In this document: positions 38,763 through 64,000 of the stretch, one piece after another | Position numbering within the stretch: position 1 is the stretch's first letter | How the letters are laid out: every line of letters starts with the position of its first letter | Assembly (NCBI GenBank): GCA_018383975.1 | Contig: JAHAZT010000060.1 | Coordinates: 1,428-65,427 of the forward strand | Direction of reading: 5' to 3' | DNA from: Eubacteriales bacterium | Lineage (GTDB): Bacteria; Bacillota; Clostridia; Oscillospirales; CAG-272 | DNA: 64,000 nt | Notes under the pieces: generated by a model | What the model was told of the DNA's origin: nothing | The model's database searches: none | What the model saw: the letters and a program-made list of their open reading frames with translations, nothing else | Position numbers and translations under genes: made by a program

Positions 38763-39041
38763 ATGAGAAAAACACTTTCCGGTTTGCCGTGGCTCGTACA
38801 GCTTTTGCTTGTCATCTTTGTTGACGGTCTCTTCGGCGGACTTTACAGACTCGGCGGGAGAAAAACTTCGTCAAAAATTGTCGGCGCGATACTGCTTACG
38901 TCGTTCATTCTTTCAATCGTTTCCTTCATCGGACTTCCGGCGGTTCTCGGTTGGATTGTAAGAGTTGTTTATGCCGTATGTCTTGTATGCGACATTATCA
39001 CAATGATTTTTGTAAGAAAAATCACGCTCTTCGCCGCCTGA
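38763..39041 (+). CDS. Small hypothetical membrane protein
   Basis: 92 aa with 3 predicted TM segments. An RBS GGGGGA lies upstream. Confidence 0.55.
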   Translation: MRKTLSGLPWLVQLLLVIFVDGLFGGLYRLGGRKTSSKIVGAILLTSFILSIVSFIGLPAVLGWIVRVVYAVCLVCDIITMIFVRKITLFAA

Positions 39042-39052
39042 CCATACTTTTC

Positions 39053-39253
39053 TTTGAAAAGAAAAGTAGGCAAAAGAAACTTCATTTATCGGTTTGTACA
39101 AACTTTATAAAAAGAAAACAGAGGTGATTTTTCATCTCTGTTTTTTGTTTCGTTATGTTTGAAAAGAAAAGCAGGCAAAAGAAACTTCGGCTATTGTTTT
39201 GTACAAACTTTATAAAAAAGAAAACAGAGGTGATTTTCTCATCTCTGTTTTTG
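39053..39253. repeat. Two tandem ~95-nt copies (period 105 bp), each with a 12-bp palindrome and a terminator-like hairpin
   Basis: The shared pattern is TTTGAAAAGAAAAG(T/C)AGGCAAAAGAAACTTC…GTTTGTACAAACTTTATAAAAAGAAAACAGAGGTGATTTT(T/C)…CATCTCTGTTTTT. The copies lie at 39053-39146 and 39158-39253. Confidence 0.85.
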
Positions 39254-39309
39254 TTTTGAGCAAAAACTCCGGTTATCGGGCTTTTGCAAGGTGCATCGTC
39301 CGAAAGCAA

Positions 39310-61604: not shown

Positions 61605-62753
61605 ATGAAGATTATTCTTGCAGGCGGAGGCACGGGCGGTCATATATATCCGGCAATAGCCGTCGCCGACACAATAAAAAGTCGTGACAAAAGCGCGGAA
61701 ATCCTCTTCATTGCTACAAAAAAAGGAATGGAGAAGACCCTTATCGAAAAGGCGGGATACAAAACCGCGCACATAGAAATGAGCGGACTGCAAAGAAGTC
61801 TCTCTCTTAAAAATATAAAGACGGCTATATGTTTTTTCACTTCGCAGATTGCGGCAAAAAAGTTACTGAAAGCGTTTCAGCCCGACGTCGTGTTCGCAAC
61901 GGGAAATTATCTCTCCTATCCTCTGATACACACCGCTGCGAAAATGGGCATACCGACGGCAATCCACGAATCAAACATTGCCCCCGGCAGAGCCATCAGA
62001 ATGCTTGAAAAAGACGCCGATGTAATATTTATAAACTTTCCGTCCACAGCGGACTCCTTCGGGGATAAGTCAAAGGTAATGTGCGTCGGAAATCCTATGC
62101 GGACAGAAGGACTTTCGCTCTCAAAGCGTCAGGCACGCGCAGAGCTTGATATTCCGCAGGACTGCGAATACGTCCTGCTTTCGTTCGGCGGAAGTCTCGG
62201 CGCACGGGCAATCAATAACAGCGTAATCGAGCTTATGGAAGGATTTTCGTCAAAGCATCCCGAAATTTTTCATATTCATTCGACCGGAAAAGGCGGGTAT
62301 GACGCATTTATGCGCAGCTTCCGCGAAAAAGGGCTTGACGCCTGCAAAAATCTGCGTCCTGCCGAATATATTTACGATATGCCGAAATGGGAGGCTGCGG
62401 CGGACGCGGTTATTTGCCGTTCCGGCGCAATGACCGTTTCCGAGATTGCGCTTATGGGCAAGGCGTGTGTGTTTATCCCCTCCCCGAATGTGACGGAAAA
62501 TCATCAGTTCAAAAATGCGGAGGGACTGAAAAATTCGGACGCCGCGCTCCTCATAGAAGAAAAAAATCTGAACTTCAACTCCCTTTCCTCCGCCGTGCAT
62601 GACCTGCTTTTCACTCCGCTCGGAGCAAAACTCTCGGAAAATATCCGCGCGTTTGCAAAACCGGAGGCAAGAGATTTGATTTACAGGGAGCTTGTCCGCC
62701 TTTCAAACCGCGAACTGCTGTCGCTTGTCGGAAAGGAGGAGGCGAATGAGTAA
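61605..62753 (+). CDS. murG: Lipid II synthase MurG (UDP-GlcNAc transferase)
   Basis: Supporting motifs are ILAGGGTGGHIYPAIAVA and RSGAMTVSEIA. Confidence 0.95.
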   Translation: MKIILAGGGTGGHIYPAIAVADTIKSRDKSAEILFIATKKGMEKTLIEKAGYKTAHIEMSGLQRSLSLKNIKTAICFFTSQIAAKKLLKAFQPDVVFATGNYLSYPLIHTAAKMGIPTAIHESNIAPGRAIRMLEKDADVIFINFPSTADSFGDKSKVMCVGNPMRTEGLSLSKRQARAELDIPQDCEYVLLSFGGSLGARAINNSVIELMEGFSSKHPEIFHIHSTGKGGYDAFMRSFREKGLDACKNLRPAEYIYDMPKWEAAADAVICRSGAMTVSEIALMGKACVFIPSPNVTENHQFKNAEGLKNSDAALLIEEKNLNFNSLSSAVHDLLFTPLGAKLSENIRAFAKPEARDLIYRELVRLSNRELLSLVGKEEANE

Positions 62754-63513
62754 AAAAGAGCTTGAGTCGTTTCGGCTCAAAGCGTTTATAATAAAGATAT
62801 GCTTTTTTGCGCTTATGCTCGCCCTCATTATTATATTCGTTTTTTCGGTGAGAATAAAAAGCGTAACGGTTGAGGGAAATGCCGTCTCTTCGGAGGAAAA
62901 CATAATCGCGGCGGCAAATCTGCGGCGCGGCGCGCATATGTACTCAATCGACAAAAACGCGCTTTCAAAGTCCATTCTTGAAAAAAATCCGTATGTAAGC
63001 TCGGTGACCGTCAGGCGACGTCTGCCGTCGACAATAATAATCACCGTAACGGAGGACAAGCCCTCTTTTTTCATGGCGTTCGGCTCGGACTTTCTGATTC
63101 TCTCGGACAGGCTGCGCGTGCTTGACGTCGTGCAGTCTCCGCAGGGGCTTTCGTCAAGCGGGATAATTCCCATTTCCCTGCCGACCGTAACCGAGGCAGT
63201 CCCGGGAAAAACTCTCGTTTTTGAGTCCGCAAGGGACTATCGGTTGAGTGCGGAGCTTATCGGTCAGTTTGCCTCGTGCGACTTTGCGGACGGAATAACC
63301 ATGATTGATATTTCAAACAGATTCGCCGTTAAAGCGGTGTATAAAAGCAAGTATACGATTGTATTCGGAAGTTATACAGATTTAGAAAAAAAGCTGAAAT
63401 TCTGCAAAAAAACAATCGGTTATGTTGAAAAAAACATGCCCGGCGTTGCAGGCACGATATACGCAACCGGCACTGCGGAGACGTCCTTCCTTGTGACCGG
63501 CACAGCCGATTGA
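62746..63513 (+). CDS. ftsQ: Cell division protein FtsQ/DivIB (TM plus POTRA)
   Basis: It has a TM segment near the N-terminus and a POTRA-like VTVEGNAVSSEENIIAAANL…VTVRRRLPSTIIITVTE. I trimmed the start to 62746. Confidence 0.85.
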   Translation: MSKKELESFRLKAFIIKICFFALMLALIIIFVFSVRIKSVTVEGNAVSSEENIIAAANLRRGAHMYSIDKNALSKSILEKNPYVSSVTVRRRLPSTIIITVTEDKPSFFMAFGSDFLILSDRLRVLDVVQSPQGLSSSGIIPISLPTVTEAVPGKTLVFESARDYRLSAELIGQFASCDFADGITMIDISNRFAVKAVYKSKYTIVFGSYTDLEKKLKFCKKTIGYVEKNMPGVAGTIYATGTAETSFLVTGTAD

Positions 63514-63714: not shown

Positions 63715-64000
63715 ATGGGTTTTGAATTTGACAACAATTATGACAGTGGCGTAAAGATTAAAGTCATCGGCGTCGGCGGTGGCGGCGGTAACGCCGTAAA
63801 CCGTATGATTGAAACAAACATACAGGGCGTTGACTTTATCACGGTAAACTGCGACAAGCAGGTTCTTCTCACGTCCAGCGCAAACACAAAAATAGCCATC
63901 GCCGAAAAGATTACAAAGTGTCACTGACCATGATACGACACCGAAATAAGTAAGCGCGCGTAAGAAGAAAACATCGAAGACATCCATAACATCATCCGCT
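63715..64000 (+). pseudogene. ftsZ: ftsZ 5' region; the reading frame as given is interrupted by in-frame TGA (63925), TGA (63931) and TAA (63961)
   Basis: The product [52 protein letters not shown]… is unmistakably FtsZ. From about codon 68 the conserved GLGAG…G…A segment reads CH*P*YDTEISKRA*EEN. The AGGAGG RBS is intact. Confidence 0.6.

Follow-up and report, generated by a model that had tools for sequence, protein, structure and literature searches.

Broken ftsZ frame at the 3' end of the contig

ftsZ is an essential gene, and the copy that begins near the 3' end of the window (the whole stretch of DNA that was analyzed, 64,000 nt) is interrupted by stop codons. Does the organism carry a dead ftsZ, or does the assembly misrepresent an intact one? 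A sequence-only reading had pointed to the interruption and had offered a local error of sequencing or assembly, a chimeric contig end, a decayed second copy of the gene, or hypermutation as possible causes. The window corresponds to C60:1428-65427, and only 7 nt of this 65,434-nt contig remain past it. Thus, the broken stretch is the extreme 3' end of the contig. The relevant features, in window coordinates, are the following.

62692..63513, + strand, ftsQ/DivIB-type gene directly upstream of ftsZ (ORF; Pfam POTRA_1, FtsQ-type, E 7.6e-17)
63715..63869, + strand, genuine 5' part of ftsZ, codons 1-52 (PF00091 positions 1-76; identical to contig C10 wherever the two contigs overlap, i.e., from 63803)
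63803..64000, + strand, stretch duplicated on C10 (205-nt dovetail that extends 7 nt beyond the window to the end of C60)
63870..64000, + strand, probable error-laden tip (20 substitutions in the window, 2 past it)
63925..63927, + strand, in-frame TGA at codon 71 (true codon GGC, Gly71, according to C10 and relatives)
63931..63933, + strand, in-frame TGA at codon 73 (true codon GGA, Gly73, according to C10 and relatives)
63961..63963, + strand, in-frame TAA at codon 83 (true codon GCA, Ala83, according to C10 and relatives)

The beginning of the gene is as normal as the sequence-only reading had described it, with an ATG at 63715 and an AGGAGG Shine-Dalgarno sequence upstream. The ftsQ-type gene is the final gene of the dcw cluster ahead of ftsZ, and it is preceded by ORFs that, by their sequence, appear to be mraY-, ftsW-, and murG-like. 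Residues 1 to 56 of the C60 product constitute an ordinary FtsZ N terminus, and the GVGGGGGNA sequence (the GGGGGN nucleotide-binding loop) is located in the clean part. The clean first 70 amino acids score 32.3 bits against PF00091, just below the cut-off of 33, and the product read through its stops scores 41.1 bits. The three stops that had been noted do break the frame, at codons 71, 73, and 83, and the translation given for them was exact. A fourth in-frame stop, TGA at codon 96, has its first base at the final base of the window (64000). The first change of the tip is a synonymous T>C at 63870, which may be a real single-nucleotide polymorphism, and a dense run of changes begins at 63883.

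The rest of ftsZ on contig C10

The sequence-only reading had proposed to search the genome for another ftsZ. The only match was the C10 part of the same gene: when the 90 contigs were searched with the tip, the single other match was at the right end of C10 (5,570 nt), at C10:5374-5570 on the minus strand, with 90% identity. The ends of C60 and C10 overlap by 205 nt, the first 67 of which are identical, while the last 138 carry 22 substitutions. The alignment has no gaps over the 205 nt. A cluster of 22 mismatches in 138 nt, adjoining 67 nt with none, is far beyond chance.

The reverse strand of C10 contains an open 346-aa frame that runs from FtsZ codon 31 to a terminal TGA (codons 31-376). 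It lacks codons 1-30 and breaks off at the contig end. This part of FtsZ scored 142-145 bits against PF00091 (cut-off, 33) and 115.9 bits against PF12327 (FtsZ_C), and it contains the GGGTG(T/S)G signature GMGGGTGTGAAP. Scanning the whole genome with PF00091 yielded exactly two matches, one on C60 that covers model positions 1-103 and includes two TGA codons and one TAA codon, and one on C10 that covers model positions 41-189 and includes no stop. From their sequences, the two matches are best read as two halves of one gene, not as two genes.

Comparison with relatives and independent assemblies

Each of ten genomes of the same genus showed one ftsZ match, with 78-96% amino acid identity to the C10 part, and we compared the loci of the nine closest. 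In all nine, the terminal 900 nt of C60 and the initial 1,500 nt of C10 (reverse complement) matched one continuous locus, and the two matches overlapped by the same 205 nt (for example, 809-1703 and 1499-2594 of L011). Aligning the close relatives' ftsZ genes, another check that had been proposed, gave a clear outcome at the 22 mismatch sites: among the 198 cells (22 sites in nine relatives), the base of the relative was that of C10 in 167, that of C60 in 18, and that of neither contig in 13. All nine relatives sided with C10 at 15 of the 22 sites. Their translations read SSA(P/T)TKIAIGEK.TKGHGAG(A/S)DP..GKRAAEE, and N57, A63, C69, the stops, and the remaining changes were private to the C60 tip.

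The same alignment bears on the residues that had appeared odd to the sequence-only reading. NCD, which it had listed as an anomaly together with IA, is found in 9/9 same-genus FtsZ proteins and is no anomaly, whereas IAIA is indeed an error for IAIG. The motif GLGAGANPE that it had expected is not that of the genus, which has KGHGAG(A/S)DPE(I/V)GKRAAEE in the nine genomes. As the NCD and GHGAG motifs are common to all nine, they are genuine and lie outside the artifact. FtsZ of this genus thus departs from the textbook protein in having NCD for NTD and KGHGAG(A/S)DPE for GLGAGANPE (window 63715-63869; L002:658-1695, minus strand).

Other records of the protein gave a similar picture. The 90% cluster around the best database match includes the FtsZ of 'Eubacterium sp. 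CAG:841' and a 346-aa record that is evidently the product of C10 itself. Residues 1-54 of the C60 product are identical to those of nine full-length members of the cluster that have the same start Met. They are also identical to those of P0129, a 386-aa protein from another assembly (ENA), once the 10-residue upstream start extension of P0129 is taken off. P0129 consists of residues 1-56 of the C60 product (identical) followed by the C10 part, with 1 difference in 346 residues, and P0134, a 376-aa protein from another assembly (ENA), matches the C10 part at 344/346 residues. A degenerate pattern covering both variants of the stretch had no match in public collections of genome and metagenome contigs, from which the records of this genome itself may be left out. 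The 205-nt overlap, the colinearity in nine relatives, and the near-identity to P0129 and P0134 suggest that ftsZ is one uninterrupted frame at the dcw locus, which would be split over two contigs in this assembly.

The sole difference between C10 and P0129 is at FtsZ codon 136 (L002:1378-1380, equivalent to C10:5251-5253, minus strand), which is ACC (Thr) on C10 and CCC in 9/9 same-genus genomes. This position, in a VTKPFxFEG motif, is Pro in 131 of 132 fetched homologues. The change is again C>A, about 318 nt from the contig end, and is likely another base error, the alternative being a real variant.

Substitution spectrum of the C60 tip

With C10 taken as the true sequence, the 22 changes of the tip are C>A (10), G>T (7), G>A (2), G>C (2), and T>C (1), and the variant bases in C60 are A (12), T (7), and C (3). 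Changes affected 21 of 81 G/C sites versus 1 of 59 A/T sites (Fisher p 4e-5), and neither A>C nor T>G occurred at any of these 59. Both C>A and G>T changes occur, intermixed, along one strand. The spectrum is unlike that of the differences among the relatives over the same 205 nt: transitions make up 3/22 changes in the tip versus 144/243 (59%) among relatives (Fisher p 6e-5), and C:G>A:T changes make up 17/22 versus 36/243 (Fisher p 2e-9). By codon position 1, 2, and 3, the changes number 10, 5, and 7, and 16/22 are nonsynonymous. Judged by its composition, the tip spectrum does not look like the divergence of a coding sequence but has the profile of substitution-type sequencing error.

As a control, we counted private differences, i.e., positions at which this genome alone departs from all aligned relatives, in contig interiors. 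These comprised the ftsZ body carried by C10, the 5' region of ftsQ-ftsZ from C60, the final 1 kb of C12, and the part of C7 past nt 141. In ∼4.2 kb, 74 private differences were found at a density of 1-3%, only 7 of which were C:G>A:T. Since the spectrum of the interiors is normal and mixed, the anomaly is confined to the tip. The ordinary spectrum of these ∼4.2 kb also speaks against C>A/G>T damage throughout the assembly.

Other contig ends of the assembly

An all-versus-all comparison of contig ends showed that 72 ends (36 pairs) overlap another end by exactly 101 nt with 100% identity, so that many of the 90 contigs could be joined by overlap. In de Bruijn assemblers, the overlap of contig ends equals the largest k (Chen et al. 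2020, PMC7111523), and the largest k of this assembly was probably ∼101. The comparison also revealed a second imperfect dovetail.

C7 left end (C7:1-141; L016:1-141) against C12:38517-38724 (L015:793-1000), 208-nt dovetail with 67 nt exact, then 39 mismatches, no gaps

At these mismatch sites, five same-genus genomes backed C12 over C7 by 154 to 23. As the relatives side with C12, C7:1-141 is a further error-laden tip, which affects a gene pair unrelated to ftsZ. Its false sequence repeats the 3' end of a glgC-like gene and removes the start codon (ATG) of the gene that follows, so that the ORF of the latter appears to begin at GTG 182 on C7. The two tips are 138 and 141 nt long and each lies behind an exact overlap of 67 nt, which argues for a technical cause that depends on read length or on k. 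The C7 spectrum is broader than that of the C60 tip, so the two may not share a single error process.

Two other pairs of contig ends overlap imperfectly. The right ends of C3 and C25 share 376 nt at 93.6% identity, with mixed, transition-rich differences (12/24 transitions), and those of C40 and C82 share 302 nt at 85% identity with one gap. Both pairs resemble strain variants or paralogs more than error tips. When all 180 contig ends were screened without a reference for an open frame in their final 140 nt, 84% had one, versus 95% of interiors, and contig breaks favor intergenic repeats. The tip of C60 keeps an open frame on the opposite strand and thus passes such an open-frame screen.

At 39040-39260, the window contains two tandem copies of a noncoding repeat of ∼115 nt, composed of an A-rich stretch followed by tttgtacaaactttataaaaagaaaacagaggtgatttt.catctctgtttt, which in sequence resembles a terminator hairpin that has a T run. 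Members of this repeat family are found at or near many contig ends (C8, C9, C11, C28, C31, C32, C52, C59, C66, C85, and others), and the repeat seems to be a main cause of the fragmentation of the assembly.

Evaluation of alternative explanations

Of the options listed in the sequence-only reading, a local error of sequencing or assembly, here at the end of a contig, gained support from the C60/C10 overlap, the open frame of C10, the relatives, and the spectrum. We consider it very probable that the broken ftsZ stretch is a technical artifact, namely, an unclipped, error-laden 3' tip of C60. Metagenome bins do mix strains, and a real ftsZ pseudogene allele of a co-occurring strain could have been co-assembled into the bin beside the intact allele. 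The C3/C25 (93.6%) and C40/C82 (85%, gap) overlaps look like natural variants, and the first mismatch of the tip, T>C at 63870, is a synonymous transition of a natural kind. However, such an allele would be a broken form of an essential gene, and its divergence would leap from 0/67 to 22/138 inside one exon-free gene, with 14% transitions, 16/22 nonsynonymous changes, and alterations of invariant Gly and Ala residues. The variant also stops exactly at the contig end, a tip of similar length exists in an unrelated gene on C7, and the intact version of the same 205 nt is present on C10 in the same genome, all of which make a genuine pseudogene allele very unlikely. Another candidate is a real but damaged or hypermutated DNA molecule that was faithfully sequenced. 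8-Oxoguanine produces C:G>A:T changes, the class to which 77% of the tip changes belong, and these fall only at G/C sites; clustered G:C>T:A changes over about a quarter of the G/C positions might then reflect, for example, oxidative damage in dead cells or free DNA. If this were true, the broken frame would be a property of one molecule, not of the genome, and would represent a burst of mutation, local and independent of strand, that struck an essential gene of a Clostridia bacterium from the gut. Yet the interleaving of C>A and G>T on one strand does not agree with damage to a single template strand, which gives one type only, the proportion of G/C sites changed (26%) is extreme, and the C7 tip has a different, broader spectrum. 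We give this explanation only a slim chance.

A decayed paralogous ftsZ with an intact copy elsewhere in the genome would account for the two PF00091 matches, and the earlier reading had reasoned that a second intact ftsZ would make the C60 copy a pseudogene or a paralog remnant. Instead, these two matches, the only ones in the genome, are complementary halves, share 67 identical nucleotides, and both lie on the single ftsQ-ftsZ locus of the relatives. C10 is the continuation of the same gene, as it lacks codons 1-30, overlaps C60 colinearly, and belongs to one locus with it, and a paralog is therefore highly improbable. Programmed diversification of the stretch as the target of a diversity-generating retroelement, or recoding with TGA read as an amino acid (genetic code 25), has a negligible probability in our view, even though all three TGA codons align with Gly, as recoding would have it. 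Recoding under code 4 or 25 is contradicted by ftsZ itself, which terminates with TGA on C10, by the TAA that is also present in the tip, and by nine further missense changes that it does not explain. A search for the reverse transcriptase profile PF00078 had no match in the 92.6%-complete genome, and the changes fall at G/C sites of C10 and are not adenine-specific; the hypermutation evoked earlier was thus not supported.

Proposed origin of the tip and consequences for the assembly

In the technical-artifact reading, the real genome would contain one intact ftsZ directly after ftsQ, which the assembler would have split over two contigs. C60 would contribute the promoter region together with ∼52-56 correct codons from the start of the gene, and C10, on its reverse strand, codons 31-376 along with the DNA downstream of them. 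In its final ∼125-138 nt, C60 would repeat the same locus with ∼16% substitution errors, nearly all of them G/C miscalled as T/A, and no indels. These false bases would have made the four stops and blocked the merging of the C60 and C10 ends. The source of the errors may have been a local-assembly step or a very small number of low-quality reads, perhaps a single one. On Illumina instruments, C shares a laser or dye channel with A, and G with T, and the pairing of C>A with G>T fits base-call confusion within these pairs. The one-way character of the changes, with no A>C or T>G, is stricter than a generic low-quality read tail predicts. We also considered extra green signal in two-color chemistry, which would give C>A and G>T without altering A or T; the C60 tip agrees with such a cause, but the broader C7 spectrum does not.

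The earlier argument, that a dead copy is unlikely for a gene that is essential and single copy, agrees with the intact continuation on C10 and the one colinear locus in relatives. Going by these sequences, ftsZ is almost certainly single copy, intact, and ordinary, and the stop-containing version would not be a real feature. The broken frame is thus biologically without consequence, the organism having a normal single ftsZ. What it reveals is that the 90-contig draft genome carries error-laden tips that make false stops or gene starts, in ftsZ on C60 and at the glgC end and the start of the next gene on C7. C60 can be joined with C10, and C12 with C7. In the deposited annotation, the 346-aa fragment from C10 appears to be listed as a separate protein, and any feature of this assembly that lies within ∼150 nt of a contig end should be treated with distrust.

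Comparison with known assembly errors, read errors, and FtsZ proteins

Metagenome assemblers are known to produce local assembly errors without any supporting read and to keep nonunique sequence at scaffold ends (Chen et al. 2020, Genome Res, PMC7111523). The present case resembles these contig-end errors in that the error is at a contig end, overlapping contigs were left unjoined, and other ends have perfect overlaps of fixed length. It differs in that the C60 tip is a colinear, substitution-only copy with a strong G/C>A/T bias, and thus neither a chimeric join nor an error in repeat number. Sequencing errors of Illumina platforms consist almost wholly of substitutions, which cluster and increase toward read ends, with G mostly misread as T (Schirmer et al. 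2016, PMC4787001). The clustered substitutions of the C60 tip, the absence of indels, and the reading of G as T conform to this profile, whereas ∼16% errors over ∼138 nt are far above the average and would require either a read whose tail is very poor or a consensus built from poor reads. Another departure from the profile is that, along the same strand of the tip, C>A changes are no rarer than G>T changes. The gene itself is in line with the canonical bacterial FtsZ of the dcw cluster: with the C10 sequence in place of the tip, the gene that follows ftsQ would encode an ordinary FtsZ of 376 aa that includes both the GGGTGTG loop and the FtsZ_C domain.
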